Part shown: in pieces, positions 17,265 through 42,970 of the stretch
How the letters are laid out: each line of letters opens with the position of its first letter
Numbering within the stretch: the stretch's first letter is position 1
Assembly (NCBI GenBank): GCA_035652435.1
Contig: DASRDU010000081.1
Location: 10,511-74,510 of the forward strand
Source: Blastocatellia bacterium
GTDB taxonomy: Bacteria > Acidobacteriota > Blastocatellia > RBC074
Direction: 5' to 3'
DNA: 64,000 bases
The notes under the pieces: generated by a model
Told to the model about the DNA's origin: nothing
The model's database searches: none
The model's input: the letters and a program-made list of their open reading frames with translations, nothing else
Program-made: the position numbers and the translations under genes

Positions 17265-17714
17265 CGACCGGGGCGCGGCCGGACGCTGTCCGGCTCATTC
17301 CCGGCCATCGAGACGCTTCAGCCCGACGGGCAGGCTGAGGCAAAATCCCGGCCGCCGATGGAACAACAGAATGAGGGTTGCGGCCTGCGAGTCGCCGTGC
17401 GGCCTCTGCCGTGGAAACTCGCCACCAGGATTCCCTCTCATCTTCGGATTGCCTGGCGCACGCTACCCCTGCTTGAGGAGTATTCAGGCGCAATCATCCC
17501 CACCCGTAACATTCAGGGCGGCAGTCTTATCTCTTCGTCTGCGCCCGGTCAATCTTTCAGTGTCACAGTCAGTAAATGAGTTGCCCGGAAGCCGCGCCTC
17601 CACCATACTGTGCCCGGCGCCGTGAGCGGTGAGTTCCAGACTATCTTCCTGCATCTGATCCGATTCAGATCAATACCACGCAAAGCGTAAGTGTGCCGGA
17701 CAGGCGAACGAGGA

Positions 17715-17768
17715 TTTCGGAAAATTTCGTCGTTTGTTCGTTACTTCGCTGGCAGGCTTCTCTATAGT
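17715..17768 (+). promoter_or_regulatory. Copy 3 of the conserved ~35-bp element (TTTCGGAAAATTTCGTCGTTTGTTCGTTACTTCGC) followed by TATAGT
   Basis: TTCG half-sites start at 17716, 17726, 17737 and 17745 (spacing 10, 11, 8). TTACTT (17741-46), a 16-nt spacer, then TATAGT (17763-68). Lies 82 nt upstream of the giant-protein ATG at 17850. Confidence 0.6.
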
Positions 17769-22831: not shown

Positions 22832-25195
22832 TTACCGGTTCGTGATCCGCGCCTTCGCGGCGATCACTTCAGGGATGTCCTGGTCGGCGTCTTTCCAGAT
22901 TTGCAGGAAGCGTTCGTATGCGGCCTGCGCCCTGTCGCGTTCGCCCTTGCGCTCGTAAGCCTGGCCGAGGTGGTACTGCGCCAGTGGATAGTTCGGATTG
23001 AGGCGCAGGATGCGCTCGTATTCGGCGACGGCCTCGTCCGTCCGGCCCAGTTCCAGATACGCATTGGCCAGACAGTCTTCGTACGAGTCAATGTCCCATT
23101 CGACGGGCCGCTCGCGCAACGCCTCGCGGAAATGATTGAGAGCCTCTTCGGCGCGCCCCTGCCTGAGCGACAGATAGCCGCGCTGATAATTCCAGATGCG
23201 CAGAAAGCCGCGTTCCCGAAGGTGGTTGTAACTGGCCGGCATGAAAACTGTCTCGCTCAGTTTTTGCGCGGCGGCTTGGTCGTCGCGCGCGAGGGCGAGG
23301 GTGAGCGAAGTCCATAACGACGATGGAAGGTATTTCACTTCCTGACCGATGGCGGCGGCAGCACGTTGCAGGTCACCCTGCTTCAGCCAGACCCGGGCTA
23401 TGGAGTTGAAGCTGCGGGCGCGCTGATTATTATCACGCGCGATCTGCAGGTAGCGCTGGTACTGCCCGACGGCCGCGCGATAGCGGCCCTGCTGAAAATA
23501 AAGGTTGCCGAGGTGGATGATCGCGATTCTGGATTCAGGGTTGAGCGCGAGGGCCCGGCCATACGCGGCAAGGGCCTGGTCGTATTGCCCCAGCCACTGG
23601 TGGAACAGGGCCAGACTGTCCCAGGCATTCGGGTCGTTGGGCGTCAGTTGAATGTAGCGTTGATAAGCCGCCAGCGCTTCTTCATTGCGCCCGAGGCGCA
23701 TGCAGACGCTGCCGAGCGCGTTGTAGATGTCTTTCGCTTCGGGGTCGGTGACCAGCCCCTGCCGGATCGCCTGTAACGCCTCCTCATTCCTGTCCTGCGC
23801 CTGCAGCATCCAGTTCAGCTGCTGCCAGGCCTCGGTTTCCAGCGGGTAGCGGGCCAGCAGCTCGCGATAAATTTCGCCGGCGCGCGCCGGGTCATGGTCG
23901 GCCTGGGCCCGCCAGGCGACGATGAAGAGCTTGTCCCGTTCATTCAAACGTTCAGACAGCCGGAACGCCTTCTCCAGATATGGGAGGGCCTTTTCGCCCG
24001 AGCCAACCTTCGCGGCGTAAATGTAGCCGACGCGCGCATACGCCATCGCAAACTGCGGGTCGAGGGCGATGGCCTTTTCCAGCAGCGCAATCGCCTCGTC
24101 GAACTGAAACATCTGCGTCTGTTCGAGCGCCAGCGAGTAGTAGCGGTACGCGTCCAGATTGTCCGTCATCGCCGCGGCCAGCCCGCGCTCCTCGTCCCGC
24201 CCCGCGAAGTCCGCGCCCAGGTGCGAGGCCAGTTTGAGCGAGAGTGAATCAATCTCTGTCAGGATCAGCTCCGGGCGCTCGACGACCAGCGCCTCGGCGG
24301 CTTCGATCTGCCCGGTGCGCGCCTCGTGCAGCGTGACGTCAATCCGCACCTCGTGCCCGAGCCGGGCGAAGCGGCCCAGGATCAGCACCTCCGCCTGCGC
24401 GCGCCGCCCCACTTCCAGCCCGTCCTCCAGCCGGAGCTGCGCCGCGTCCCGGTAGCCGATGTGATCGAGCAGCGCCGCCAGCTGCTGCCGACTGAGCAGC
24501 GTCAGGCGCGGCGAGCGCGAGAGGTTGGTGATCAACATATCGGCGAGGCCCTCGCGCAGCCAGTCCAGCTCGCGGTCGCCCGACTGATTCTCGAAATAGA
24601 GTACCGCCACCGCCCGCCTGCCCGGCACGTGCGGCAGGGCGACTTCCGCCGCCGCCGGCCGGCGCCTGCTGAAATGGAAGGCCAGGAGTGCGGTGAGCGC
24701 CACCAGACCGATCCCCAGCACGGCCAGCCACACGAGGGGAGGCCGGCGCCAGGTTCGTCGCGTCGTGAGCGCCGGCGGGGCGGCCGGCTGATCCGGCTGA
24801 TGAAATTCCTCGGTAAACTCGACCTGGACGGAGGTGATCTCCTCGACCTCGTATGCACCGTGCGGCAGAGACTCTTCGACCGGCCCGATGAAACGATAAC
24901 CGGCTTTCGGGACGGTCCTGATGAAGCGCGGCTGGCGCGAATCGTCGCCGAGCAGCCGGCGCAGCTCGACGATGATCTGCACCAGCGCGTCGGGCGTGAC
25001 CGCCGCCCCTCCCCAGACGTTTTCGATCAGTTCCTCTTTCGTGACCAGCTGCCCGCGGCGGTCGAGCAGGTAGAGCAGCACCTGCAGGCTCTTCTGCCGC
25101 AGCGCCAGTTCCTCGCCGTCGCGCCGGAGCGAGCCGCGCGCCGGGTCAACCTCAATGCCCGCGACACGATAAATTGGCCTGTCGAGAATCTGCAT
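22832..25195 (-). CDS. Membrane-anchored ToxR/CadC-like transcriptional regulator R1: wHTH (trans_reg_C), single TM, TolB_N-like domain, TPR array
   Basis: wHTH motifs [29 protein letters not shown]...[12 protein letters not shown]; [24 protein letters not shown]; [28 protein letters not shown]; multiple TPRs. The track ORF opens at a TTG at 25222. The ATG at 25195 matches the N-terminus of the paralog. Confidence 0.88.
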
Positions 25196-25224: not shown

Positions 25225-25260
25225 TTTCGGAAAAATATCGTGACTTTGTCGTTACTTCCG
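25225..25260 (+). promoter_or_regulatory. Copy 1 of the conserved ~35-bp element (TTTCGGAAAAATATCGTGACTTTGTCGTTACTTCCG)
   Basis: Half-sites TTCG 25226, ATCG 25237, GTCG 25248, TTCC 25256 (spacing 11, 11, 8). Lies 30 nt from the R1 ATG. A TATAGCAC box sits 176 nt further on, at 25436-25443, 27 nt before the small-ORF ATG. Confidence 0.55.
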
Positions 25261-25469
25261 CCCGCCGCCGATGAGAGAAAGGGTCCGTCAGTAACAGCCA
25301 GCATCCGAATGATTGTTTGATCGGAAGGTTTTCGTTTTCCCTTCATTAACTCCAGCCCGCGTTTTGTGCGAGGACAAAACCGGGTCAGGAAAGACCAGTC
25401 GGGATCGAACCGGAGTGCCGCAATCGCGGCGGGAGTATAGCACGGCCGCCGTGCGGAACAGGAGACCGG

Positions 25470-25718
25470 ATGAAGCGAACCCGGAAAGTAACGATCACCA
25501 CCACGCGCCGCCGCACGCTGCGCGTCCAGCCCGCCATCCGCGCGCGCTGCCCGGTCTGTCAGCACGAGGTCGAGACGCTGGCCACTGCTCACGCCGCCGA
25601 AGTTCTGGAAATTGATGCTGAGACACTCAACCGGCTGGTTGCCGCCGGCCGGGTTCACGCCATCGAAACCGTGAGCGGCAGCTTTCGGGTCTGTCAGGAG
25701 TCGCTCTTTTCAAAGTAG
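25470..25718 (+). CDS. Small conserved protein S1 (82 aa): Arg-rich N-terminus, CxxCxH...C motif, excisionase/MerR-like HTH; function unknown
   Basis: By my hand alignment, 53 of 82 positions are identical to the 37617-37865 ORF, and the conserved block differs mainly at synonymous third positions. GGAG lies upstream of the ATG. Its stop is 9 nt before the G2 ATG, and the G2 AGGAGG overlaps S1's stop codon and last sense codon. Confidence 0.65.
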   Translation: MKRTRKVTITTTRRRTLRVQPAIRARCPVCQHEVETLATAHAAEVLEIDAETLNRLVAAGRVHAIETVSGSFRVCQESLFSK

Positions 25719-25727
25719 GAGGTGGAA

Positions 25728-28700
25728 ATGAACGCGCGGAGATTAACCCTTGCCTGCACCCTGCTCATCATCAGTCTCGCAGCGATTCTGCCCCGGTCCC
25801 GGCAGGCCGAGAGTGCTCAGGAACCCCGACGGGCCGCCAATCACCCGGCCGCAGCGGCCGGCAACGGAGCGACGGGTGAACCAGTCCAGGCCCAGGCCGT
25901 CGCGGGCACGATCCTCCGCACGCTGGTCTATCACGAGATCACCTCATTGAACCGGAGCGCCATCGCCGAAATCGCCCAGGGGTTTCCCCTCCTCAGCAAG
26001 AATGGGAATCGCGCGGTCTTCACCATCATCACAGGCGATGGCATGAGGCACATCTTCGTCATTAACTCTGACGGCACCGGGCAGCGCGAAATAGATTCAA
26101 ACGACTCTTTCGCTCCGTTTTTGGACATCAGCGCCGACGGCTCAAAAGTGCTTTACACCAATCGCAACCTCATCCGCATGGCCAACGCTGACGGCACTAA
26201 CCTCCACGACGTCGTGAACATCGGCGGTGGTTTTATCCAGGTCCGCCTCTCCGCCGACGGGACGAAAGTTTTTTTCACCGTTGACCGCGACTTCCCCATT
26301 GGGAGCGAGAATCTGACGAAGGGGCTCTATGTCATCAACGCCGATGGGAGCGGTCGCCGGCAGATCGTCAGTGGCGCGACCCTTGCGACACTGCTCGGCG
26401 CTCCAGCAGGTGGTAACAACTTCGTCAGTACCTCCGGCACATCTTTGGATGCGTCCGCCGATGCCTCGCATATCATCTTCGGCACCAGCATTGATGGAAA
26501 AGGCCAATATCTCCTCGGCGTCAATTTTGACGGCAGCGGGCTGCACCAGATCCTCGGCCCCGTAGATTTCCTGAATCATGCCGTCATCAGCGGCGATGGG
26601 CTGAAGGTGGCCTATGACCTCACTCTTCCGCCCTGCTGCTCCACTCCGAGTGAAGCGGGTGTGATCAATTTCGACGGCACGCAAAAGAAGACCTTAGTGA
26701 CCCAAACGGCCCCTTTCCGCGGCTATCCCGGCTCCGGTACTCCGATCCAGCTCGGCGCCGACGGTTCCAGATTGCTCTTCGGCACGGGCGTCCTCTTTAA
26801 CACGGCGACGGGCGAGGCGCTGCAACTGGCGGCGATTGGCGGTAACTTCTCAAGTGATCCTCAGTTTCTGGTCAATGAAGGAATGCGCGTTGCGACCATG
26901 AACAGCAGCGCGACACGCTTCCTCTATCTCGCGCCCGACCCGAACAACGTGCTGCAACTGGTGACGCTGGACCTTAACCCCACGAGCCTCGGACTCGCGC
27001 CGAGCGTGACCGACCCGAAGCTCGACCCGACCTTCGTCATCACGTCAGGGCGCGGGAGAGCCACCCTCAGCGCCAAGGTGAGTGCTTCGGGCACGCTCGT
27101 GCGCGTGAACAATTCCATCCTCTTCAAGGGGCTCACCAATGCCAACGCCTTCAACGGGCTGACCGACAACAATGTTGACTGGCTGGTCCTGCTCGATGAC
27201 GGCACCCACGGCGACACCACAGTCAACGATGGCATCTTCACTAACAATAGTCTCGGCGCCAATTGCTGCGCTGTCCTCGGTTCGCGCCTGGTACGGGTCA
27301 AAGCCGAAGCACGCGGTACAGACAGTAAACGCCATGCGACCGCCATTGACTTCGAACCCCTCACCGTCACCGACCAGGTGCCCTCGATTGACGTGTCGCA
27401 GACGAGCCTCGATTTCGGCAGCGTCAGCGTCGGGCAGAGCAAAGACCTGACCCTGACGATCCGCAACGTCGGGACGAGTCAGCTCACGGTCAATTCGCTC
27501 AACAGCGATAACACGCAATTCAGCGTGCCTCCGCCGCCTGCTGCGCCTTTCACCATCGCCCCTGGTGGACAGCAAACCATCACCGTACGCTTCACCCCCA
27601 GCGCGGTCGGCCCGCAGGGCGGCCGGCTGACGATCAACAGCACCGACCCGGCGCGTCCGAACATTGACGTGTTCCTCTCCGGCGTCGGGGCCACTTTGAG
27701 CGTCACGGTCAATGACCACCGGACGAGCGGCGGCCCCATCCCTGACAATTGCGCCCCGCCCGCCTTGAAATCCAGCTTCACGCCCGCCGACGCGCAGGTG
27801 TTTCAGTGGACCTTTGTTTCGGGCTTCCAGAATGGCGCGGTCATCCGCTGGGAGTGGGTTCAGCCGAACGGCACGATTTACCGGCAGTTCCAGGCCCCGG
27901 TCAACAACACCAGCCAGTTTGTTTGTTTCTGGGATGCGATAGGCATCGCCGGCCAGCCCGCGGCCTCGCTGCCCGGCACCTGGCAGGTGCGCGTCTTTTA
28001 CAACGGCACGCAGATCGTGACCGACACCTTCACCATCTCCGCCGCCAGCAGTTGCCCGACCGCCGGTGGCATCAACCCAACGAGCGGCGCCGCCGGGACG
28101 AGTGTCATCATTACCGGCGCGAACTTCACCGGCGTGACCGTGGTCAGGTTCGCCAATAACCTCACCGCGAATTTCACCGTCAACAGCGATACGCAAATCA
28201 CCGCGACCGTACCGGGCGGCGCCGTCACCGGCCCGATCACTATCGGCAAGCCCAATTGCCCTGACGTACAGACCTCCACCTTCACCATCTGCACATACTC
28301 CATCTCACCAACCAGCCAGAACTTTGCCGCGGGCGGCGGGACGGGCAGCGTGGGCGTGACGACGCAGTCGGGGTGCGCGTGGACGGCGACGAGCAACGCC
28401 GGATTCATCACAATCACTGCGGGCACGCCGGGCAGCGGCAATGGCACGGTCAATTATTCGGTCGCGGCCAATACGAGCACCAGCGCGCGCAGCGGCACGA
28501 TGACGATTGCCGGCCAGACCTTCACGGTCAATCAGTCGGGCTCGACCACCGGCGCGCCGCTGATCCGCATCGAGCCCGGCGCGCTCAGCTTCAACGTCCC
28601 GCGCGGGCAGTCGTCCGGCCCGGTCTCATCGGCCGCCAGTCAGATCGAACCTCAGCAGTCCACTGCGGCGGCAGCGCAGGACAAAGATGAAATAGAAAAG

Positions 28701-31700
28701 GAGCGCGAGGAAGAGGGCGATCATGTCGAGGAGTATCGTGAGTGGTTTTACGGCCAGCGGCAGTACCCGTTCACTGACATCCCGGCGGGCGCGCGCGAGC
28801 GCGCGATCAGGGAGAAGGAGCGGGCCGCGGAGCGGATGCGGGCCTCTTCGACCGAAGAGGCGAAGGCCGCCGTCTCGCAGTGGACTTCCCTCGGCCCCTC
28901 GATGACCGGCACCGGGCGTTACGGCAACGTCAGCGGGCGCATCACGTCAATCATCGTCAATCCGAATGACCCGAACGTCGTCTATCTGGGCGCGGCGCAG
29001 GGCGGGGTGTGGAAGACCACGAATAACGGCGCGAACTGGATCCCGCTCACCGACGACCAGCCGTCGCTGGCCATCGGCTCGCTCGCCTTCGACCCGAACA
29101 ATCCGAACATCGTCTACGCGGGGACGGGCGAGCAGAATTTTGCGGGCGACAGTTACTACGGCAACGGCGTCCTGAAATCCACCGACGGCGGCGCGTCGTG
29201 GTCCGTACTCGGCGCTTCGGTCTTCGCGCGTCAGACCATCGGGCGGATTGCTATCAATGCCAGTAACACTCAGGTCATCTTCGCCGCGGCGGGCAACGGG
29301 CTGTACCGCACGACCGACGGCGGCGCGACGTGGACCCGCGTCCTGCCGGGCGCGCTGCGCGCGGCGACCGACGTGGTGGTGACCACGACGGCGGTCTACG
29401 CTGGTATCGCGAGCGACGGCGTCTACAAATCAACCGACGGCGGCAGCAACTGGACGAAGCTGACCGCGGGGCTGCCCGCCGGCGGCTTTTTCCGCGTCCA
29501 CCTCTCAAGCTCCGCGGCCAGCCCGAATACACTGGTCGCGCTGCTGGCCACCAATGGCGCTCTGGAGGGCATTTATCGCACCACTGACGGCGGGGCGAAC
29601 TGGGGCAAAACCGCGGACACGCCGACGGGCATTTTCGGCGGCCAGGGGTTCTACGACATCTCGCTCGGCCTGCACCCGACCAACTCAAACATCATCTACT
29701 TCGGCGGGATTGATGTCGGGCGCACGACCGACGGCGGCGCGAGCTGGACGAACCTGACGAAAGGTTATCAGGGCGGCGCCGTCCACACCGATCAGCACGC
29801 GATTGCCTTCAACCCGCAGAACCCTGCGGTCGTCTGGATCGGCAACGACGGCGGCGTCTGGCGCTCGGATAACGGCGGCGACACGTGGGCGAACCTGAAT
29901 CAGGGCCTGGGCATCGCGCAGTTCCAGAACATCGCGCTGCACCCGACGGACAACAACATCAATTACGGCGGGACGCAGGACAACGGCATGCAGAAATACA
30001 CCGGATCGAGCGTCTGGCGCGAGTCGTTCCCCGGCGACGGCGGCCCCGTCATCGTTGACTTCAACACGCCGACCACGGTCTACGGCGAGTACATCCACCT
30101 GCAACTTTTCAAGTCCACAGACTCCGGCAACCCGAACACATGGCCCGCCGCCACCAACGGCATTCCCTTCGTCAAAGGCAACGCCGACGGGCGCTCGGCT
30201 TTCTACGCGCCGGTTGCGATGGACCCGACGAACCCGCTGAAGCTCGCCGCCGCGACCTACCGCGTCTTCTACACGACGGACGGCGCGGGCAACTGGGCGA
30301 GCGTGAGCGGCGACCTGACCGGCGGGCAGGTGATCAATGCGATCACGTTTGCCGCTGGCGGCGCGCGCCTCTGGACGGGCAGCACCGACGCGCAGGTGTG
30401 GCGCGGCGATCTGGTCAACGGCTCGTGGGCCTGGACGAACGTGAATAAGGCGCCATTGCCGAACCGCTTCGTGACGCGAATCGCCGCGCACCCGACCGAC
30501 CCGCAGACGGCTTATATTTCATACTCCGGCTTCGGGACCGACCACGTTTTCAAGACCACCGACGGCGGCACGACGTGGACGAGCGCGAACGGCGGGCTGC
30601 CAGACATCCCCGTCAACGTGGTGCTCGTTGACCCGAACAATCCGGGCACGGTCTATGCCGGGACGGACATCGGCGTCTACCGCTCGACCGATCAGGGGCA
30701 GAACTGGACGCCGTACGGGACGGGGCTGCCGAACGTCGCGGTCTTCGATCTGGCGATCAGGAAGAACGGCAACCTGCTCCGCGTCGGCACGCACGGGCGC
30801 GGGATGTGGGAGATTCAGACGACGGGCGAACAGAGCTTCACCATCTACAATGACGGCGACGCGACGCTGACTGTCACCGGCATTACCAAACAGAACAACT
30901 CCCCGTGGTTTTCATTCACCACGCCTTCGGCGATCCCGTTCGACGTCCCGCCAAAAGGCTCCGTGCCGGTGCGCGTGAGCATCAACGCGACGGGGCTCAA
31001 TGCCGGAGTGTTCACGGACCGTCTGCTCGTGACTTCAAACGACACCGCGCGCAGTCCGTACCCGACCGGCGTCTTTATCAACCTGAACGTGACGGACAGC
31101 GGCGGAGGTGGCGGCTGCACCTTCACGATTTCACCATCGAGTCAGTCATTCAATGCGAGCGGGGGCACCGGCAGCGTCGGCGTGACCGCGCCCGGCGGGT
31201 GTCCGTGGACGGCGGTCGCGAATGATTCGTGGATCACGATCACGTCAGGCGCGAGTGGCAGCGGCAACGGCACGGTCAGTTACGCGGTCGCCGCCAACAC
31301 CGGCGCCAGTTCGCGCGCCGGCACGTTGACAGTCGCCGGGCAGACCTTCACCGTCACGCAATCCGGGGGCAGCAACTGCACGTTCACACTCTCGCCCACC
31401 AGCCAGAACTTCGGCGCGAGCGGTGGCAGCGGCAGCGTGAATGTCACGACACAAGGCGGTTGCAACTGGGCGGCGAAAAGCAATGCCGACTGGATCGTCA
31501 TTACCTCCGGCGCGAGCGGCGCCGGCAACGGCGCCGTCGGCTTCATCGTGGCCGCGAACAACAGCACCAGCACTCGCAGCGGAACAATGACGATAGCCGG
31601 GCAGACATTCACCGTCACGCAGACGGGTGGCAGCGGTTGTGTCTTCACCATCTCACCGGCGAATCAGGTCTTCGCGGCCACCGGCGGCAACGGCAGCACG

Positions 31701-34700
31701 AGCGTCTCAACGCAGTCGGGCTGCAACTGGACGGCGCAGAGCAACGATGACTGGATCGTCATTACCGCGGGCGCGAGCGGCGGCGGCGGCGGCACGGTCA
31801 GTTACGCGGTCGCCGCCAACAACAGCCCCGTCCCGCGCGCCGGAACGATCACTGTCGCCGGCCAGACGTTCGTCGTCGGGGAACTCGGAACCGGCGCGAC
31901 CTGCGGACTCACGCCCATCAGCATCGGGCAGACCGTGAGCGGGGAACTGGCCACTACTGATTGCCGTTCGCCGATTGACGGGACCGATTTTTACGCCGAC
32001 CTGTGGTACTTCACCGCCTCGGCGGGGCAGCAGGTGGCAATCTCGCTCAATTCGGCGGAGTTCGACGCCTTCCTGACGCTGATCGGGCCTGACGGTGCGA
32101 TTGTGGATGATGACGATGACGGCGGCGGCGGGACCAACGCGCGCATCCCGGCGACGAACGGCTTCATCACGCTGCCACTGGATGGGACTTACATCATCGA
32201 AGCCAGCAGCGCGTTCAAGGATGAGACAGGCAAATACACGCTCAGTCTGATTGCGCCCGCGGGCTGCACGTTCTCAATCTCACCGTCCGGCCAGTCGGTC
32301 AGTGCGAACGGGGGCACCGGCAGCGTCAGTGTGACGACGCAGGGCGGCTGTGCCTGGACGGCGACGAGCAACGTTGACTGGATCGTCATCACCTCTGGCA
32401 GCAGTGGCGCCGGCAATGGCGCGGTGAATTACTCGGTCGCAGCGAATGCGAGTTCTTCGCCGCGCACCGGCACACTCACCGTCGCCGGACAGACCTTCAC
32501 CGTTACGCAGCCGGGCGGCAGCAACTGCACGTTCACACTCTCGCCGACCAGCCAGAACTTCGGCGCGAGCGGTGGCGCCGGCAGCGTCAGTGTGACGACG
32601 CAGACGGGCTGCAACTGGGTGGCGCAGAGCAGCGCCGACTGGATCACGATCACTGCGGGCGCGAGCGGCAGCGGCAGCGGCGCGGCGAATTACTCGGTCG
32701 CGGTGAATAACGGCGTCGCGCGCACCGGGACGCTCACGGTCGCCGGACAGACCTTCACCGTCACGCAATCGGCCAGCAGCAATTGCACATTTACGCTCTC
32801 GCCGACCATCCAGTCATTCGATGCGAAGGGCGGTAACGGCAGCGTGGGTGTCAGCACTTCGGCCGGCTGCACGTGGACGGCGGCCTCCAACGTGACGTGG
32901 ATCGCCGTCCTCGCCGGGACTGAAAGCGGCCAGGGCAGCGGCTCGGTCGGCTACTCGGTCGCCGCCAACACCGCCAGCAGTTCGCGGCAGGGCACGATCA
33001 CGATTGCGGGCCAGACGTTCACTGTCACTCAGTCGGGCGGCGGAAGCAGTTCGTGCATTGATGTGGCGATCTCCAACTCGCTCACGGGCAGCGCGGGCGG
33101 CACGCTCACCGTCCCGATCACAGTCTCCGACCTGACGGGCAAAGGCGTTTTGTCATATGACGCCACGATCACGTTCGATCAGAGCGTCCTGCGCCCGCAG
33201 AGCGCGCCCTTCGACCGGACGGGCACGCTCAGCAGCGCGATGACCGTGACCGCGAACACCGCTACCGCGGGACAGGTGCACATCTCCGCCTTCAGTGCGA
33301 GCGCGCTCGTCGGGGCGGGCGCGCTGCTCAATCTGAAGTTCGACGTGATCGGTGCGGCGGGCTCGTGCAGCAGCCTCAACTGGGCGAGCTTCAAATTCAA
33401 CGAGGGCACGCCGTGCGCCACGACGGCGAACGGCAGGGCGTGCGCCGGCGGCGGTTCGATGTCGGGCACGGTCACTTACTGCGTTACGCCGAAGCCCGTG
33501 CCCGGCGTGGTCGTCACGGCGAGCGGCACGCCCGCGGCCTCGAACACGACCAACGGCTTCGGCGTCTTTCAGGTATCGGGCCTGGGCGGCGGCGCTTACA
33601 CGCTGACGCCGGCGAAGACGGGCGACACTAACGGCATCACATCTTTTGATGCCGCGCTGGTGGCGCTGAGCGTGGTCGGCGCGAATACGCTCACGGCGTG
33701 TCAGCAGGTGGCCGGCGACGCGAGCAACAACGGCAGCCTGTCGTCGTTCGACGCGGCGCTCATTGCGCAGTACGTCGTCGGCATCAGCAACCCGTCGAAC
33801 TTCACTGGCACATGGAAATTCACTCCGCCCTCGCGCTCGTACGCGAGTGTGAGCGGCGACCAGACGGGGCAGAATTTTGACGCCGTACTGGTGGGCGACG
33901 TCTCGGGCAACTGGACGCCGGGCGCTGGTATTGCGTCGAATCAATTCGCTCTCTCAACCGATTCGGCGGGCGCGGTGGCGCAGACGACCGTCTCGCTGCC
34001 GTCAATCACCGCGACGTCGGGCACGAGCATCACGATCCCGATCACGGTCGGCGACCTGACCGGCAGGAATGTGATTGCCTATGACTTCGACCTGACCTTC
34101 GATCAGAACCTGTTGCAACCGATGAATCCGGCCTTCGATGCGGCGGGGACGTTGTCCGGCGCGATGACGATCACGCCGAATGCCACGCCGGGCCGGCTGC
34201 GCGTCTCGGCCTTCGGCACGACCGCGCTCGCGGGGTCAGGCACACTGCTCAACCTCAAATTCAACGTCATCGGATCGGGGGCTGCGACGGGACTCACGTG
34301 GCAGAAGTTCCTGCTCAACGAAGAAACGCTCGGCCAGAGCAACCTGACCAGCGGGAGCGTGAACGTCAACCGCCTCGTCACGACCGTGTCGGCCGCGAAT
34401 TACAAGGGTGCCGACCTCGCGGCTGAATCAATCGTCGCCGCTTTCGGGTCCTCGCTGGCGACGAGTATCGCCGCCGCCAGCACCATCCCCCTGCCGACGT
34501 CGCTCGTCGGCACGACGGTGAAAGTGAAGGACAGCGCGGGAATCGAACGGCTCGCCGCCCTCTTTTTCGTCGCGCCGTTGCAGGTCAATTATCAACTCCC
34601 GCCCGGGACCGCACCCGGCCCGGCCGTCATTACCATTACCAGCGGAGACGGGTCGGTTTCATCCGGCGCGATCAACATCGTCAGTGTCGAGCCCAGCCTC

Positions 34701-35093
34701 TTCACCGCCAACTCGGACGGGCAGGGCGCCCCGGCAGCTTACGTGATCCGCGTGAGGGCCGATAACTCGCAGAGCATCGAAGCGGTCGCGCGCTTTGATG
34801 CCGTGCAGAGCAAATTCCTCCCCGCGCCGCTCGACCTCGGCCCCCCGAGCGATCAGATCTTTCTGGTGCTGTTCGGGACCGGCGTTCGGTTCCGCAGTTC
34901 GCTCCCGGCCGTGAGTGCGAAGATCGGCGGGGTTGACGCGCGGGTTGATTACGCGGGGCAGCAGGGCGGATTTGTCGGCCTCGATCAGCTCAACGTATTC
35001 GTGCCGCGTGCTCTGGCCGGGCGCGGCGAAGTGGACATTGCACTGACGGTGGACGGGAGGACTGCCAACACTGTGAAGGTCAATATCAAATGA
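25728..35093 (+). CDS. Giant secreted multidomain protein G2 (~3121 aa): PD40 propeller module, choice-of-anchor-D-like, IPT/TIG, 7 BACON-like repeats, Asp-box (BNR/sortilin-like) propeller, PPC, cohesin-dockerin-cohesin, C-terminal TIGR03437 module
   Basis: ATG at 25728 lies 5 nt after AGGAGG. Signal peptide [22 protein letters not shown]. The track ORF opens 6 nt upstream at a GTG. Domain motifs are listed in the sub-features. Confidence 0.92.
25911..27375 (+). other. PD40/TolB-like propeller plus cap module (paralogous to G1 20585-22010)
   Basis: See the G1 sub-feature. The blocks are collinear and conserved by eye. Confidence 0.75.
27385..27692 (+). other. Choice-of-anchor-D / ASH-like Ig domain
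   Basis: [38 protein letters not shown]...[34 protein letters not shown] second copy is at about 30835-31100. Confidence 0.6.
28290..28545 (+). repeat. BACON-like repeat unit 1 (~84 aa)
   Basis: [84 protein letters not shown]. Confidence 0.75.
28873..30818 (+). other. Asp-box (BNR) sortilin/VPS10-like beta-propeller region
   Basis: I counted 11 S/T-x-D-x-G-x-x-W type motifs, e.g. [50 protein letters not shown]. Confidence 0.8.
31115..31889 (+). repeat. Three tandem BACON-like repeat units (units 2-4)
   Basis: Each unit starts C(T/V)F(T)(I/L)SP..Q.F.A.GG.GS and ends AGQTF(T/V)V. The period is about 255 nt. Confidence 0.8.
31902..32258 (+). other. Pre-peptidase C-terminal (PPC)-like domain
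   Basis: [67 protein letters not shown]...[10 protein letters not shown]. Confidence 0.6.
32265..33040 (+). repeat. Three tandem BACON-like repeat units (units 5-7)
   Basis: Same unit as 31115-31889. Units 3 and 6 share a 51-nt stretch with a single mismatch (31376-31426 versus 32526-32576). Confidence 0.8.
33054..33420 (+). other. Cohesin-like domain 1
   Basis: [48 protein letters not shown]...[31 protein letters not shown]. Confidence 0.65.
33621..33785 (+). other. Dockerin-like duplicated segment
   Basis: Two related segments: [20 protein letters not shown] and [23 protein letters not shown], with Ca-loop-like D/N-rich starts. Confidence 0.6.
33984..34325 (+). other. Cohesin-like domain 2
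   Basis: [46 protein letters not shown]...[30 protein letters not shown]. Confidence 0.65.
34377..35090 (+). other. C-terminal TIGR03437-like module of G2
   Basis: [25 protein letters not shown]...[39 protein letters not shown]...[16 protein letters not shown]...[47 protein letters not shown]. Confidence 0.8.
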
Positions 35094-35147: not shown

Positions 35148-37511
35148 CTATGATGGGTCAGTCAGTCTGGCTTTCGCCGCGATCACTTCCGGGATGTCCG
35201 GATCAGCATCCTGCCAGATTTCGAGGAAGCTGCGGTAAGCGGCCCGCGCCCGCTCGCGCTCACCTTTGCGCTCGTAAGCCTGGCCGAGATGATAGTGGGC
35301 GAGCGGGTAGTTCGGATTGGTTTTCAGGATGCGTTCATATTCGGCGCCGGCTTCGTCCACGCGCCCCAGTTCGAGATACGCATTCGCCAGACAATCCTCA
35401 AACGAATCAATGTTCCATTCGGCGGCGCGGTACTGCAAGGCGGTGCGGAAATGATTGAGCGCGTCCTCCCCGCGCCCCTGCTGCAAGGCCGCCGTGCCCT
35501 GCTGGTACTCCCAAATGCGCAGCTTGCCGCGTTCCTGATAAACCTCATAGGTTGCGGGGGCAAAGACTTCCGCGCTCAGTTTCACCACGGCAGCCTGATC
35601 GCGTTGCCGGAGCGCCAGGGCGAGCGAATTCCATAACGAGCCCGGGTTGTATCTGACTTCCGCCTGCGCCGCGGCGGTGGCGCGAGCCACATCGCCCCGC
35701 TTCAAATACAACCAGGCCAGGCAGTCGAAGCCGCGCGCGCGCGCGCCGTCATCGCGGGCAATCTGGATGAAACGCTGATACTGTTCCGCCGCCGCGCGAT
35801 ACCGCCCCTGCTGAAAGCGCAGATGGCCCAGATGAATGACCGCCACACCCGATTCGGGGTTGAGCGCGAGCGCGCGGTTATAGGCCGCTTCAGCCTCGGC
35901 GTATTGCCCGCTCCAGCGATGGAATTCCGCCAGACTGTCCCACGCATTCGGATCGTTCGGCGCAAGCTGGATGTAATGTTGAAAGGCTGCCAGCGCCTCA
36001 TCATTCCGCCCCAGCCGCATGCAAACTGAGCCGAGCGCGTTGTGCAGGTCTTTCCACTCCGGGTCAGTGAGCAGCCCCTGCCGGATGGCCCGCAAGGCTT
36101 CTTCATTTCGATTCTGCGTCTGCAACACCCAGCTCAGCCGCTGCCAGGCTTCGGTCTCCAGGGGGTAACGCGCAAGCAGGTTACGATATACTTCAATGGC
36201 CCCCGCCGTGTCGCGGGCGGCAGTGGCGAGCCACGCAGCGATAAACAGCTTATCCTTTTCACTCAGACGACCGGCGAGCGTCAGAGCCTTTTCCAGATAC
36301 GGTCGGGCCTTTTCGCCCTGCCCCATGCGCACGGCGTACACATAGCCGATGCGTGCGTGCGCCAGCGCAAACTGCGGGTCGAGCGCCAGAGCTTTTTCGA
36401 GCAGCGCAATGGCTTCGTGAAACTGATACATCTGAGCCTGCTCGAGCGCCAGGGAGTAATAGCGGTACGCATCCAGATTACTCGTCATCACCGCCGCCAG
36501 CCCGCGGTGGGCGTCTGCGTCCGTCAGCGTCGCGCCCAGATGCGTGGCCAGCTTGAGCGAGAGCAAATCAATTTGCGTCAGGATTTGCGCGGGCGTATCC
36601 GCGACCAGCGATTCCGCCGCCTGCAATTGCCCCGTGTGCGCGTCGTGCAGCGTGACATCAATCCGCACCTTGTCGCCGAGCCGCGCAAAGCCGCCGAGGA
36701 TCATCATCTCGGCCTGCGCGCGCCGCGCGATCTCCAGGCCGTCTTCGAGTTTGATTTGTGCGGTATTCTGCCACCCCGTGTGACTGAGCAGGGCGGCCAG
36801 CTGCTGCCGGCTGAGCAGGGTCAGCCGCTGCGAACGCGAGAGGCTGACAATCAGCATGTCCGCTAACCCTTCGCGCAACCAGTCCAACTCGCGGTCGCCC
36901 GCCCGGTTTTCAAAATACAACACGGCCACACCCCTTTTGCCCGGCACGTGCGGCAGGCTGATTTCAGCGCGCGTGGCGCGGCGATAGAGGTAGCCGCCGA
37001 GCGGGACCAGAAGGGCCAGGGCAATCAGGGAAACAAGGAGGCGGGGAGACAAAGAGACGGGGAGGCGAGCCTGTTCTATCTGGCGCCCTGTCACCCCATC
37101 TCCAGATTGTCCCGGCTCGACAACTTCTTCATAGCCGATTTCGACCGATGTGAACTCTTCGACTTCCAGCGCGTGGCCGAGCTTTTCGACCTCGCCGATA
37201 AAACGGTAACCGGCCCTGGGAAAGGTTTTAATAAAGCGCGGCTGCTGGGAATCTTCGCCCAGCGCCTTACGAATCTCAACGATGCACTGTACCAGCGCGT
37301 CGTCTGTGACCGCCGCGCCCTGCCAGATTTGCTCCATCAGTTCTTCTTTGAGAATGAGGCGCGGGCGCTGTTCGATCAGGTAAAGCAGGACCTGGAGGGA
37401 TCTGGGACGCAGGCAAAGCTCGTCGCCGTTCCGCTTGACCTGGCCGCTGAGCGGGTCAAGCTCAGCCCCGGCTAAGCGGTAAATCAGCTTGTCCGCCCCC
37501 TTGTTCATCAC
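35148..37511 (-). CDS. Membrane-anchored ToxR/CadC-like regulator R2 (paralog of R1): wHTH, TM, TolB_N-like domain, TPR array
   Basis: Collinear with R1 along its whole length, e.g. [36 protein letters not shown] versus [36 protein letters not shown]. The first codon at 37511 is GTG; an ATG follows at 37508. Confidence 0.88.
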
Positions 37512-37532: not shown

Positions 37533-37590
37533 ATTCGGAGAAATTCGTCGCGCGTTCGTTACTTCCGGCGCGGGTGCGCCGGATTATAGC
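37533..37590 (+). promoter_or_regulatory. Copy 2 of the conserved ~35-bp element (ATTCGGAGAAATTCGTCGCGCGTTCGTTACTTCCG) followed by TATAGCAC
   Basis: Half-sites TTCG 37534, 37544, 37555 and TTCC 37563 (spacing 10, 11, 8). TATAGC at 37585-90 lies 27 nt before the small-ORF ATG. Aligns to copy 3 without gaps, with about 27 of 35 positions identical. Confidence 0.6.
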
Positions 37591-37616
37591 ACCTCGTAAG
37601 GAGAGGACTAAGCCCG

Positions 37617-37865
37617 ATGAAAGTGACGCGCCGTCTGAAAATCACTGTCACCCGGCGCCGCATACTGCGTTCGGCGGTGGCGCCCGTGCGAGCCTTTTGT
37701 CCGGTTTGCGCGCACGCGGTCGAGACGCTCAGCGCGGCGCAGGCCGCCGAGGTGCTGGAAATTGACGGCCAGGCATTGGCCGGCCTGATCGCTGCCGGGC
37801 GCGTGCATGCAATTGCACTGGTGAGCGGCAGCCAGCGGGTCTGTCAGGAATCGTTGTTTGCTTAG
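37617..37865 (+). CDS. Small conserved protein S2 (82 aa), paralog of S1
   Basis: [19 protein letters not shown]...[64 protein letters not shown] lies upstream of the ATG. Confidence 0.65.
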
Positions 37866-37900: not shown

Positions 37901-40900
37901 ATGCGCAGAAAATCAATGATGGTCGTGCTGCTGCTGGCGCTCGGCCTGGTCTGGATGCTGCCCATTGAGTGGCGGGCGCTGAGTCTGGGAAAAGCGCAGG
38001 CGTCCACCCTCGGCCGGGCGGCAGCCGGCGCCGGCTGCCAGCAGGGGCAACGCGTCACCGTCCAACTCCGCAGCAGTAGTTATTCGACCAGCATCCAGGG
38101 TAATTCGATTTTCGGCGACGGGGGCTGCCCCACCGGCTCCGCGAGTGGGAGTCCCAACACGCCCACGGTCACTGCGCCTTTCGCTTATGAATGCAAGGAA
38201 GAAAAACTCAGCGGGCAGGCGGTCGTAACTTTTCCCACCGGCGTACTCGCCGGCACGCTGGACGGCAACGGCGACCTCGTCCTCGATACATCCGTGAGAT
38301 TCACCGGCAGAGTCGAGATCACGGGCGAGATCAGCCGCAACATCGGGGGAAGCAACCAGCGCACCCTCGAACTGAGCAGCTTTTACTGTCCTGCGATGCG
38401 CGACAACAAACAAATCTCGCTTGTACCTGCGGTCTGGTCGGCCAGTTACGATTGCAGTCTGAACAAATTGAACCGCCTGTCGAATGGTTCTTATGGCCTC
38501 TCCGGGCTACAGGTCAGGTATTCCGGCGGACGGTTGATCCTGGACTCAGGCATCAGCGCTGAATACGCGCCGGCCAATGCTTCGGGCACGATTACGCTCA
38601 ACTCCACGACGCTCGACTTCAACACCACAATCGGCACCAACCCGGCGGCGAAACCCGTGACGCTCAGCAATACCGGCAGCGGGGCCATGAATTGGCAGGC
38701 GGCGGCCACTACGACGAGCGGCGGCAATTGGCTGACGGTCACGCCGGACTCCGGTTCGCTCAACGCCGGGCAATCAGCGACACTGACGGCGACGGTCAAT
38801 GCGAGTGCGCTGGCGGCGGGGTCCTACAGCGGCTCGGTCACAGTCTCTTCAACCAACGCCAGCAACAGCCCGCGCACGGTGCCAGTCACGCTGACGGTCA
38901 CAGGCTGCGCCGCGGCACTGAGCCTCGGCGCAAACGCGCCGGAAGAACTTCAGGACACGCTCCAAATCGCGGATGCGCAGCCGGGCAATGGCACGCCCAT
39001 TTCAGGCGCGCTGCTCAAGCTCGGCGGCTTGAAAGTCACGGTGCGTTACCTGTTGCAAAGCCGCGACAGCGCCACGCTGGCCGTGCGCCTGTTCGACGAA
39101 GCGGGTAACCAGCGCGGGGACGCGGGCGAGCTTGGCATCGCTCGGCCTATGTCCTGTCCCAATCCGCTGCCCACGCGCGAATTCAACTTTTTGTCCGCCA
39201 GCATTGATTTCACGCCCAACGTCGGCGGTGACGTGCCGACCAGCGTGAAACTCTCGGTGTTGCTGCTCGATCCGGCGACAGGCAGCATTTTCAAACGTGC
39301 CGACCAGACGTACAAAGTCATCCCCGATGTCATCGCCTTTGAAAGCAATCCCACCATCAACGGGAAGGCCGCGCCCGACGCCAGCACGTTCCCTGAAGAT
39401 GGCAGGATCAGGTTCGACTGCGGGCTGCGCTATCACCTGACCAACGACGTGACTGGCAAATTACGGCTGGAAGCCTTTAACTTCACCGGCCAATCCATTG
39501 CGCGCAAGGACTTCGCCGCCACGGTCCCGACCTCCGCACAACCCCTCACGGTGGGCTTCCCGCTCGACTTTGAATTTACGGTGCCGCCCACGGTGTCGCA
39601 GATCACCATTGCGGCGTATTTGCTCGCTGAAAACGGGACGGTACTCAAAATCTCCGTGCCGCTGACCTATCGCAGCAGCGGCTTCGGCATTGCGCTTGGC
39701 ACGGAATCTCCCGCCACGTCACAATTTCTCCCGTTTGGCGACACGCCCACGCTCTCGTCGGGCAGGCCCACAAAAGACAGCTTACCTCTGCCTGGAGGCA
39801 AACGTCTGGCGCTTGGGGTGACGGAGGATTTGGTGAACTTCCCCCCGAATACTTTGGCGGGAATCCTCCTCTCGGCAAGAAGGGTGGATGGCACTTATCT
39901 CAGACAGAACCAGCTATTGGAGAAGCAGGCAGCCGGAAGGCTGCCCCGGCCTTACTATTTCGTCAACCTTCCCATCAAAGTGCCTGACGATGCGGATCAA
40001 TGGGAACTGAAGCTGGTGTTTTTTCCGCCCGGCAAAGACCCGCTCGTTTCAAAACCGCTGCTGCTGAACATAGACCGTGTGCGCATCGTGCCGAACGATT
40101 TCACGCCTGTCCGCAGGACTACTTTGGAGCGCGGCGACAAGCCCAAAACCTTCCGCTACAAGCTTGAATACAACGTCAACCGTCCTGGCGTGAGCAGATT
40201 GTTCGTCGAAATCACTTACAACGCGGTCCTTCCACCCGCTCCCACCAAATTGCTTGAACTGAAGGCGGGCGACCACAGCCCGGCGAATCCGTCCTTCAGA
40301 GAATTTGACGTATCCATTCCTACCAATACCGAGGTGAAATCATTGACTGTGAGTTTTTTTCTGGAGCCAGACCTGAAAGACAGTCTCCGCGCTTTCTCTG
40401 GTGAGAGTATCACATACAGCAACCTTTCCGAGGTAAAGCAAATCTCCGGGGGCGCCACGACAGTTCAGAGCAATCAGGGCGTCACCATGAATGGCGTGCA
40501 AAACCTTGCGGATCGCACATTCACACTGACGCGCCATGCCGCCCAGTTCAAAGGCGCTCTCGACACGTCCAGGCTGTCGCTGACCGAAGCTGAAACAACG
40601 GCTGACGACGCGCCCCATTTCGCATTGCGCTACCCGGAAGCCGCCTCGCTGTTGCGCGATTTCATCGGCGTCAATGCTTACTGGGAATTCAATCCGCCCA
40701 TCCCCGCCGACGGCAGCTTCGCCGCTGACCTGACGTTCAGCTATGACGCCGGAATGCTGCCCGACGATCCGAACTTCAGTGAAGCCGCGCTCAAGGTCGT
40801 CTCTTTCGATTCCGACACCGGGCAACTGGTCAGCTATCCGACTGCGGTCAACCTGGCCGCGAAGACCGCCACGGCGCGCGTCAACTCCCTCGCGCGCTAT

Positions 40901-42970
40901 TACACGCTCGGCGTCTTCGGCCCATTTGCGCAACGCAGCCTGAATTTCCCCGTGCTGCAAAGCAGCGACGATCTCACTACGCGCTTCAACCTGGTGAATG
41001 TGGGCACGGCGGACGCGGCGCTGAGCTTGCGCGCCTACGATGACGCGGGCGCGGATTTGCAGGCGCCCGGCCTGGTCAATCCGCTGCCCGCCACACTGCG
41101 CGCCGTGCGGCTGTTGACAGGTTCGGTCAGCGAGTTGTTCAAATCCACCGCGCCGCTCGCCGGCTGGGTGCAAACGCGCGCCAATCGCAACTTCGTCGCC
41201 GGGTATGAAATGCTCGGCAGCGGCAGCCGGCTCGACGGCCTCAACGCGCCGAGCGGTTACGACAGCGCGCTCATCCTGCCCGAAGCCGTCTGGGACGCGA
41301 CGCAAACGACCGAAGTGCATCTCGCCAACGCCACCAATTTCTCAGGCGTAGTCACGCTCGAATTGCACGACGCCACCGGACGACTGGCGCAGACGGCCGA
41401 AGTCACGCTCGCCCCCAAAGCCCGCTTCGCCGGGCGGCTGCAGGACATCTTCCAGGATCTCGCGCAGCCTTTCACCGGCTACCTGCTGATCCTGAGCGAG
41501 CGCGATCTGGCGGCGGCGGCGGTGCAAGTGTTGGAGAAAGAAATCACGGCACTCAACGCCCAGCCGCTCAACAGCGGCGCGACGAAACTTTTCGCGCCCC
41601 ACTTGCCGCTGGGCGGCCCGATTACGGCGCGGCTCACAGTGGTGAATCCGACGGGACAACCCGCCAGCCTGACGCTGCGGCTGGTAAACGAGCCGGGGGC
41701 GCCCACGACCGCGCCCGTCAATCTCACGCTGGGCGCGGGCCAGCAACTCCAGCGCAACTTCAGCCAGCTTTTCACTCCTGACTCGTCGCCGCTGAGCCGT
41801 TCCACGCTCGTGGTTCAAAGTGACGTGGCAGGGCTGGCGGGCAATGTGACGCTGCTGAATCCATCTGCCGCTATCCCTTTCCGCGCGGCGTTGCCGCTGG
41901 AAAGTGCGCCCGCCAACCTCCTGGTCTTCGCGCATCTCAATACCTCGGTCGGGTTTTTCACGGAACTGGGCATCTTCAATCCGTCGGCGCAACCGGCGCG
42001 CGTGACGCTCGCCTGCTTCAAACCGGACGGCACTGCGTTGGGGCAAACCAGCGTCAACGTACCGGCGGGCACGGTCTTCGGCGACTTCCTGGACAGCCTC
42101 GTGGGCGGCGCGCTCGGGCAAGTCGCAGGCTACTTCACGCTCAGTTCAGATCAACCCATCGTGGCGGGCGCAAGCTTCGGGACAGATGATGGCCAGATGC
42201 TCGCCGCGCTTCCGGGACAGGCTTTCGACCCGGCCGCGTTCACGCGCTCGGCGGTGACGGTTCTGGCGGCAAGTTATAAAGCCGACATCGCGCCCGAAGC
42301 CATCGTCGCCGCGTTCGGCAGCGGGCTGGCGACGAAAGTGGAAGTGGCCGCCGCCGTGCCGCTGCCGACGACGCTGGCGGGCACGACGGTCCGGGTCAGA
42401 GACAGCGCCGGAATCGAACGGCTGGCGCCGTTGTTTTTCGTCTCGGGCGGGCAGGTCAATTACCAGATCCCGCCGGGGACAGCGATCGGAACCGCGACGG
42501 TGACGATCACGAGTGGCGATGGAACTGTCTCGACCGGGGCGATGCAGATTAACGCGGTGGCTCCGGGATTATTCACCGCCGACTCAAGTGGAGGGGGCGT
42601 GGCTGCCGCCTATGCGGTGCGCGTCAAGCCCGGAGGCGCGCAGATTCTTGAGCAGGTCTACCGGTATGACTCGACGCTCAATCCGCCCCGCTTTGTGGCT
42701 GTCCCGCTTGATCCCGGTCCGTCCGGGGAGATAGTGGTGCTGGTGTTGTACGGGACCGGGATTCGCTTCCGCAGTGGTCTCGGGGCGGTGACGGCGATGA
42801 TCGGCGGGGTGAGTACTCAGGTGGATTACGCGGGGCCGGCGCCGGGGTTTGTGGGACTGGATCAGCTCAACCTGATCGTGCCGCGCTCTCTGGCCGGGCG
42901 CGGCGAAGTGGACGTGGTCGTGACCGTTGATGGAAAGGTCGCCAACACGGTCAGGGTGAATATCAGATAG
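37901..42970 (+). CDS. Giant secreted protein G3 (1689 aa): signal peptide, one BACON/Ig-like domain, ~1100 aa without motifs I recognise, C-terminal TIGR03437 module
   Basis: GGAGG lies 9 nt upstream of the ATG. Signal peptide [21 protein letters not shown]. The C-terminal 240 aa are collinear with the G2 C-terminus. Confidence 0.9.
38591..38905 (+). other. BACON/Ig-like domain in G3
   Basis: [97 protein letters not shown]. Confidence 0.55.
42253..42967 (+). other. C-terminal TIGR03437-like module of G3
   Basis: [24 protein letters not shown]...[39 protein letters not shown]...[47 protein letters not shown]. Confidence 0.8.

Follow-up and report, generated by a model that had tools for sequence, protein, structure and literature searches.

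DNA-binding domains of the OmpR/PhoB family bind direct repeats of about 11 base pairs (bp) that overlap the -35 region. In the pho box and other OmpR-type class II sites (PhoB, OmpR, PhoP) such repeats lie on one face of the helix, overlap or replace a poor -35 hexamer and are followed by a normal -10, and the proteins that bind them carry the OmpR-family winged helix. In ToxR/CadC-like regulators an N-terminal winged helix-turn-helix (wHTH) domain is joined through one membrane helix to an extracytoplasmic sensor, and their operators (Cad1/Cad2 of cadBA; TNAAA-N5-TNAAA for ToxR) are A/T-rich direct repeats beside the regulated promoter of envelope or secreted targets. Regulators of this kind are reported to be somewhat enriched in Acidobacteriae (PMC10269533). 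Here we describe an element that resembles both types of operator and occurs in three copies in a 64,000-nucleotide (nt) stretch of DNA from a Blastocatellia bacterium (assembly GCA_035652435.1, contig DASRDU010000081.1, positions 10,511 to 74,510; called the window below). The copies stand ahead of genes for giant secreted proteins (G1, G2 and G3), and two of them separate a regulator gene (R1, R2) from a divergent gene for a small protein (S1, S2) that precedes the giant gene. Acidobacteriota are abundant in soil and, to our knowledge, experimental knowledge of their gene regulation is almost nil. Acidobacterial genomes encode many membrane-anchored regulators that combine a wHTH domain with tetratricopeptide repeats (TPR), and many giant secreted proteins without a known role.

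The element is very probably functional cis-regulatory DNA with a link to the R family, and R itself is probably the protein that binds it directly, as judged from the comparative evidence given below. The kind of element is well known, while the motif, its regulator family and the predicted regulon are new. Literature searches with TIGR03437 (the domain that the giant proteins share), with the invariant 9-mer TCGTTACTT of the element and for acidobacterial wHTH-TPR regulators returned nothing relevant on the motif, its regulators or the regulation of TIGR03437 proteins.

The three copies lie on the plus strand in intergenic DNA and have the same orientation as the giant genes, with the positions and sequences that a first-pass annotation of the window had reported (Table 1). 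Scored with a matrix made solely from copies outside the window, they stand far above the next-best site in the 64 kb (8.6 bits) and the best site in 20 shuffles (14.2 bits). A search with a 32-nt consensus, allowing three mismatches or fewer, recovered two copies in the window against 0.00 expected from 100 shuffles. The start codon of R2 is 24 nt, and that of R1 29 nt, from the start of the element, in agreement with the closeness to the divergent regulators noted earlier. The copy upstream of G1 stands alone, with no divergent regulator and no R or S gene adjoining it, and tblastn of R1 and R2 against positions 17200-17760 found no remnant of an R gene. The order of genes and elements is DUF4388, copy 17715, G1, R1, copy 25225, S1-G2, R2, copy 37533, S2-G3.

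Conservation elsewhere was assessed from a first set of loci gathered by S-protein homology alone, with the motif unused, and from a motif scan of metagenomes. The S family is small and confined to Acidobacteriota, including metagenome-assembled Blastocatellia genomes. A contig scan with the S alignment gave six loci, and most of the comparative power came from look-ups of exact proteins and from the metagenome scan. Within the S-homology set the element was present, in the same orientation and between diverged flanks, in 13/13 distinct divergent R-S intergenic regions. The only S gene of that set without an element (L003) lies directly after a giant gene and has no R beside it.

The motif-only scan used the pattern TCGGAR-N4-5-TCGK-N7-TCGTTACTT and returned 71 loci (61 distinct instances), three of the instances having too little upstream sequence to be assessed. 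In 33 of the 58 assessable instances the opposite strand encodes an R-like wHTH N-terminus whose start is no more than 120 nt upstream, with about 20-95 nt between the element and the R-like start codon, and the neighbouring genes encode a wHTH domain, one membrane helix and TPR. Of these R-linked instances, 20 also have S, five lack it over at least 900 nt and in eight the downstream sequence is too short to tell; in the five lineages with R and without S, genes for lipoproteins or signal-peptide proteins lie directly downstream of the element. S-like genes without an adjoining R were found twice among the 61, once beside a second copy of the element at a locus that also has R (L030) and once with a marginal S match (L040). 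A further 15 of the 61 have neither R nor S as neighbours, most of them lying between genes, 100-250 nt ahead of a plus-strand gene for a signal-peptide protein or lipoprotein. The remaining eight are inside long open reading frames (ORFs) of unrelated contigs and look like chance matches. Stand-alone copies 100-250 nt before plus-strand secreted or giant genes include those at G1 in the window, L087 (where the gene is of the giant TIGR03437 type), L012:17281, L065, L067 and L077. The fixed gene context and fixed orientation of the motif in the metagenome scan show that it is not randomly scattered.

At L012 a 40-codon relic of an R N-terminus (…YHIVGLEVDPARNCLPRAG…; 17118-17240, minus strand) lies beside the stand-alone element that precedes a giant gene. 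The relic beside a retained element indicates that R genes get lost while the element stays.

The anatomy of the element was read from an alignment of 62 non-redundant copies. Conservation is built in at positions that the search pattern fixes, and the signal was therefore taken from the unconstrained positions. Three units of AATTTCGK make up the repeats. The spacing from repeat 2 to repeat 3 is 11 bp throughout, and that from repeat 1 to repeat 2 is 11 bp in 51/62 copies and 10 bp in 11/62, the latter group including the G1 and S2 copies. In the window the core spacings are accordingly 10-11 bp (repeats 1-2) and 11 bp (repeats 2-3), the copy between R1 and S1 having one extra base between its first two repeats. 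The TCG cores are the most conserved positions (98-100%). The third repeat continues into the invariant TCGTTACTT, after which come about 17 nt of variable sequence. Four helically phased half-sites had been proposed for the window copies: three of them stand as repeats at 10-11 and 11 bp, and the fourth (TTCC/TTCG, 8 bp further on) is not conserved as a repeat across the 62 copies, being part of the invariant TCGTTACTT that holds the -35-like hexamer TTACTT.

Downstream of TTACTT the features expected of a promoter can be seen. A TG occurs at +23/+24 in 35-48% of copies and is followed by a hexamer with A at its second position in 73%, which is the place expected for the sigma-70 -11 A after a 17-nt spacer from TTACTT. 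The window copies have the arrangements TTACTT-16 nt-TATAGT (G1, as proposed in the first-pass annotation), TTACTT-17 nt-(TGa)GAGAAA (S1) and TTACTT-17 nt-GATTAT (S2). TTACTT agrees with the consensus TTGACA at 2/6 positions, and a scan of the three window regions for canonical sigma-70 promoters and terminators found no promoter. The poor hexamer together with the absence of a canonical promoter fits an activator-dependent promoter, and the earlier proposal of such a promoter with a weak -35 gains support from the fixed distance of 16-17 nt between TTACTT and the -10-like hexamer. At G1, TATAGT is the predicted promoter -10 and would leave about 75 nt of leader ahead of the G1 ATG (17850). 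The period of the repeats, the weak -35 with its spaced -10 and the linked gene for an OmpR-family wHTH protein would together place the element among operators of the OmpR/PhoB type.

Two further patterns connect the repeats to a protein that reads them. The variable dinucleotide before TCG is identical in repeats 1 and 2 in 44/62 copies (permutation p < 5e-5), the concerted states being TT/TT, TA/TA, AT/AT, TC/TC and AG/AG. Variation in concert is what recognition of both repeats by a single protein species would produce. The third repeat covaries with R: proteins with ALVQ-I/L in the recognition helix are associated with GTCG at repeat 3 in 15/15 cases, and those with ALVQ-S/C with TTCG or CTCG. 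The residue after ALVQ, Ile in R1 and Cys in R2, aligns with the recognition helix of CadC. Taken with the conservation and the linkage to R, these patterns argue for the earlier suggestion that the element is the operator of the adjoining wHTH regulators. That suggestion had left the choice between R1/R2 and S1/S2 open, and R appears to be the better candidate, since it is the partner that stays constant: in five lineages the element has R beside it but no S, and the reverse combination is essentially absent.

The predicted architecture of R is consistent with this role. R1 matches Trans_reg_C (Pfam, 2.4e-16) at residues 27-102 and also has TPR matches, and R2 likewise matches Trans_reg_C. 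The DNA-binding domain is closest to that of E. coli CadC (5ju7, E 1e-16) and then to ToxR, and a CadC N-terminal profile matches R1. The translation has one hydrophobic stretch flanked by Arg at about residues 150-176, followed by a CsgG-like region and TPR (about 400 residues). These features fit the architecture of a ToxR/CadC-like transmembrane regulator with a single predicted membrane helix.

R and its putative operator differ from the described systems in several respects. Unlike PhoB, OmpR and PhoP, R is no response regulator: it lacks a receiver domain and is predicted to be anchored in the membrane, with a large TPR ectodomain. The AATTTCGK unit bears no relation to the pho box and is repeated three times instead of twice, with a 10-bp spacing of repeats 1 and 2 in one clade. 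R differs from ToxR and CadC in its sensor, which is CsgG/TolB-N-like with about 400 residues of TPR, and its operator has another sequence. The R gene also lies divergently, directly against the operator, a small Xis/BldC-like protein is often co-encoded and the predicted targets are giant TIGR03437 proteins.

On balance, and less firmly than we regard R as the binder, we favour a model of an operator fused to a weak promoter. The CadC-like R would bind it in tandem, and it would drive the S-G operons and G1 and probably also serve autoregulation of R. The wHTH domains of membrane-anchored R1 and R2 would bind the three AATTTCGK repeats head-to-tail, one helical turn apart. The third repeat would lead into the poor -35 TTACTT, with the 16-17-nt spacer and the -10-like hexamer beyond it, so placing the repeats at about -40, -51 and -62. 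Upstream repeats at such positions are the classic placement of OmpR/PhoB-type class II activators. Bound R would recruit RNA polymerase for transcription rightwards into G1, S1-G2 and S2-G3, and would probably also repress its own gene. The latter step follows from the layout: the only good leftward -10 (TGCTATAAT) lies beyond the element, and the element is 24-29 nt from the R start, so that we infer that R transcription would begin in or cross the occupied element and be repressed by bound R. The earlier caveat that the element could serve R autoregulation therefore stands.

A conserved motif and a candidate regulator-operator pair with specificity determinants are now in hand for Acidobacteriota, and the predicted regulon comprises giant proteins with TIGR03437, lipoproteins and small secreted proteins. 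This opens the regulation to direct tests, and targets of an uncharacterised regulator family become predictable in metagenomes. One such prediction can be made in the window. The G1 copy shares the 10-bp spacing of repeats 1-2 and the TTCG third site with the copy adjoining R2 and not with that adjoining R1, and from this G1 should respond to R2 and not to its convergent neighbour R1.

The loci with S fall into two types that differ in the DNA between the element and S. Type A loci (S2, L001, L002, L007b, L009, L012, L013 and L015) have a short intergenic region made up of the element, a stretch of constant spacing and variable sequence, the box GGAkTATAGCAC and S. In type B loci (S1, L004-L006, L007a, L017, L018 and most metagenome matches) the element is followed by a TGAGAAAAAG-type -10, a variable insert of 10-350 nt, the same box and S. 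The box lies 24-30 nt before nearly every S start codon (window, L001-L019 and many metagenome loci) and persists beside S proteins that are 35-50% identical to S2, with the pattern ATTATAnC and the variants AGTATA, ATGATA and ATTGTA. On the plus strand it offers only GATTAT or TATAGC, while on the minus strand TGCTATAAT or TGCTATACT is a near-perfect extended -10. The always-conserved A after TAT has a meaning only on the minus strand, where it gives the -12 T, and the minus-strand reading is therefore preferred. This suggests that the box is at least partly the promoter of the divergent R gene, and in type A loci its overlap with the rightward -10 would form a bidirectional core. The first-pass annotation had noted a TATAGCAC box after the S2 element and before S1, and it is present, 20 nt past TTACTT at S2 and, at S1, 26 nt ahead of the ATG. 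The S2 hexamer in register with TTACTT as a -10 is GATTAT rather than the TATAGC of the box, and the minus-strand TGCTATAAT reads better as an extended -10. GATTAT is the predicted -10 of S2 and TGCTATAAT that of R2, and together they form a possible bidirectional core.

Several observations weigh against the operator-promoter model. TTACTT is far from consensus, and among the -10 hexamers, too, several are weak (GAGAAA). A start at the predicted position would give type B loci an S leader of about 180 nt that contains the second conserved box, and the box adjoining S is a better promoter on the opposite strand, so that the element might act mainly on transcription of R. The dinucleotide and recognition-helix correlations are confounded by shared ancestry, types A and B being clades, and are suggestive only. 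R, S and the site types follow the same clades, and covariation therefore cannot separate R from S as the binder. S is itself predicted to belong to the Xis/BldC fold family, whose members are also direct-repeat binders, and E. coli CadC is not a textbook tandem direct-repeat binder.

The likeliest rival, although we regard it as unlikely, is that S and not R would be the main binder, polymerising head-to-tail on the AATT repeats, with R acting elsewhere or through S. Searches of Pfam and NCBIfam with S gave no family above threshold, the sub-threshold matches being PhyR sigma-like, HTH_17 and a spurious S20 only. Some databases label S homologues 'ribosomal protein S20'. A structure model of S (pLDDT 76) has Pukovnik Xis and Streptomyces BldC (4j2n, 6ama) as its best Foldseek matches, with probability 1.0 and target TM-scores of 0.7-0.78 but weak E-values of about 0.02. 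The model predicts the same small winged-helix fold for S as for the proteins of BldC/Xis filaments. BldC binds AATTxxxxC direct repeats as head-to-tail multimers (PMC5859096). Each repeat of the element likewise begins with AATT, and at most loci the S gene comes right after the element. Beyond AATT the repeat differs from that of BldC, however, and so does the period, which can be inferred as about 9 bp from the four repeats in a 36-mer (PMC5859096) against the 10-11 bp found here. S also carries an extra CPxC...H...C arrangement (invariant C28-P-x-C31, H64 and C76) and a basic N-terminal tail; the cysteines and histidine probably form a metal site. In the five lineages without S the search extended over 900-1500 nt beside an element with an adjoining R, S possibly being encoded elsewhere in those genomes, and the two opposite cases were a duplicated element in an R-bearing locus and a marginal match. 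S is a real candidate as co-binder or alternative binder, on the strength of the modelled fold and of the repeats that BldC binds.

Slightly less probable in our view is that the element is mainly an autoregulatory operator or roadblock in the promoter or 5' leader of R, with little effect on S and G. The short distance to the R-like start codon recurs in all 33 independent R-linked instances, and on the R strand the box beyond the element has the form of an extended -10 (TGCTATAAT/TGCTATACT), its -12 being conserved only in that reading. Yet the stand-alone copies without R (window G1, L087, L065, L067 and L077) keep a perfect element before secreted or giant genes, the conserved 17-nt spacing to the rightward -10-like hexamer would have no explanation, and the box holds its distance to the S ATG (24-30 nt) and not to the R ATG. 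Autoregulation of R is compatible with the operator-promoter model and probably forms part of it.

A more elaborate arrangement, which we consider speculative and improbable, would have R and the metal-binding, Xis/BldC-like S co-assemble on the phased repeats of a bidirectional core. The genes for secreted proteins of 1,600-3,100 residues would thereby be tethered to the membrane, with coupling of transcription, translation and export ('transertion') and S as a feed-forward or architectural layer. If true, giant surface proteins of Acidobacteriota would have an expression system of their own.

It is very unlikely that the element is a promoter module independent of any factor, with phased A/T tracts acting as an UP element or curved DNA, or a promoter for an alternative sigma factor. 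The element is A/T-rich in a genome of 63% G+C, is phased at 10-11 bp, lies at about -40 to -65 from the -10-like hexamer and is found in regions that have no canonical -35. Conservation nevertheless peaks at the G/C-containing TCG cores and not at the A/T tracts, and neither the concerted variation of repeats 1 and 2 nor the tight link to one regulator family is expected of a generic UP element. By inspection, neither sigma-54 (GG-N10-GC) nor extracytoplasmic-function (AAC-N16-CGT) promoters fit on either strand.

Least credible of all is that the element acts as RNA in the leader of S/G or R, where it would be transcribed if the leftward box is the R promoter, or that it is a mere relic of duplication of the R-S-G module, as the paralogy of R1/R2 and S1/S2 might suggest: an Rfam search of the whole window gave no match, single-sequence folds of four leader candidates were no better than shuffles (z -1.1 to +0.3) and RNAalifold of 51 copies on both strands gave 0 kcal/mol with no consensus structure, so that a structured cis-regulatory RNA was rejected, and conservation across about 60 diverged contigs with unalignable flanks rules out a passive relic.

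Two other classes of element were considered and rejected. An interspersed repeat or the end of a mobile element does not fit, because the copies outside ORFs are all intergenic and in one orientation to the downstream gene, and no inverted-repeat partner was found. The boxes of SARPs (AfsR/ActII-ORF4) resemble the element in that an OmpR-type domain binds 11-bp direct repeats over the -35, and AfsR also has TPR (PMC10936776). SARPs, however, are cytoplasmic proteins in which a BTAD domain directly follows the DNA-binding domain, and 8 bp separate the 3' repeat of their boxes from the -10. In R the DNA-binding domain is followed instead by a predicted membrane helix, and the distance from the last TCG core of the element to the -10-like hexamer is about 23 bp. 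The only BTAD match in R is weak and falls at residues 682-766, in the C-terminal TPR region.

Table 1. Coordinates in the window of the three element copies, their promoter-like sequences and the neighbouring genes, in the order in which they lie.
Feature	Position	Strand	Remarks
DUF4388 gene	16179-17264	+	
Element copy upstream of G1	17715-17749	+	TCG cores at 17717, 17727 and 17738; TTACTT (-35-like) at 17741-17746; 41.6 bits
-10-like hexamer TATAGT	17763-17768	+	16 nt past TTACTT; read from the sequence; agrees with the family-wide -10 position
G1	17850-22817	+	Secreted protein, 1655 residues; TIGR03437 domain near the N-terminus
R1	22832-25195	-	787 residues; OmpR/CadC-type wHTH, hydrophobic membrane segment, CsgG/TolB-N-like region, TPR repeats
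Element copy between R1 and S1, type B (long intergenic)	25225-25260	+	TCG cores at 25227, 25238 and 25249; TTACTT at 25252-25257; 36.9 bits
TGaGAGAAA, TG-extended -10-like hexamer	25272-25280	+	17 nt past TTACTT; counterpart of the conserved type B box TGAGAAAAAG
S1-proximal box GGAGTATAGCAC	25432-25443		S1 ATG 26 nt further on; extended -10 TGCTATACT on the minus strand
S1	25470-25718	+	82 residues; basic N-terminus, invariant CPxC...H...C, predicted Xis/BldC-like wHTH fold
G2	25722-35093	+	Secreted protein, 3123 residues; BACON, sortilin-like and cohesin domains, C-terminal TIGR03437; starts 4 nt past the S1 stop
R2	35148-37508	-	Paralogue of R1 (67% identity), architecture as R1
Element copy between R2 and S2, type A (short intergenic)	37533-37567	+	TCG cores at 37535, 37545 and 37556; TTACTT at 37559-37564; 33.3 bits
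Box GGATTATAGCAC	37581-37592		Plus-strand GATTAT (37582-37587) 17 nt past TTACTT; minus strand reads TGCTATAAT
S2	37617-37865	+	Paralogue of S1 (67% identity), 82 residues
G3	37901-42970	+	Secreted protein, 1689 residues; C-terminal TIGR03437; starts 35 nt past the S2 stop

A number of smaller observations were made on these loci. The TIGR03437 'Solibacter C-terminal' domain is at residues 54-294 of G1, near the N-terminus, and at the C-terminus of G2 and G3. At S2 a perfect palindrome able to form a hairpin (CCGGCGC-GGGT-GCGCCGG, 37565-37584) fills the spacer from TTACTT to the -10; orthologous loci do not keep it. L030 has two near-identical whole elements 965 nt apart, one by R and the other by S, which suggests that an insertion duplicated the control region. 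A palindrome with arms such as GGTACGGTACAGGGAGC...GCTCCCTGTACCGTACC is inserted in the long R-S intergenic regions of L018 (3110-3380), L019, L022, L025 and L046, between the operator and the S box. It is also present in unrelated contigs and has the look of a small mobile or REP-like element. Seven contigs (L021, L028, L035, L061, L068, L078 and L089) share a variant element, ATTTCGGAGTTTTTTCGTCGCTCTTTCGTTACTTG, about 110 nt before a gene for a small secreted protein (motif GYDPVAYFTDGKP), and contigs of this type have a distant R-like TolB-N/TPR gene convergent downstream. The group looks like a different regulon with the same type of operator.

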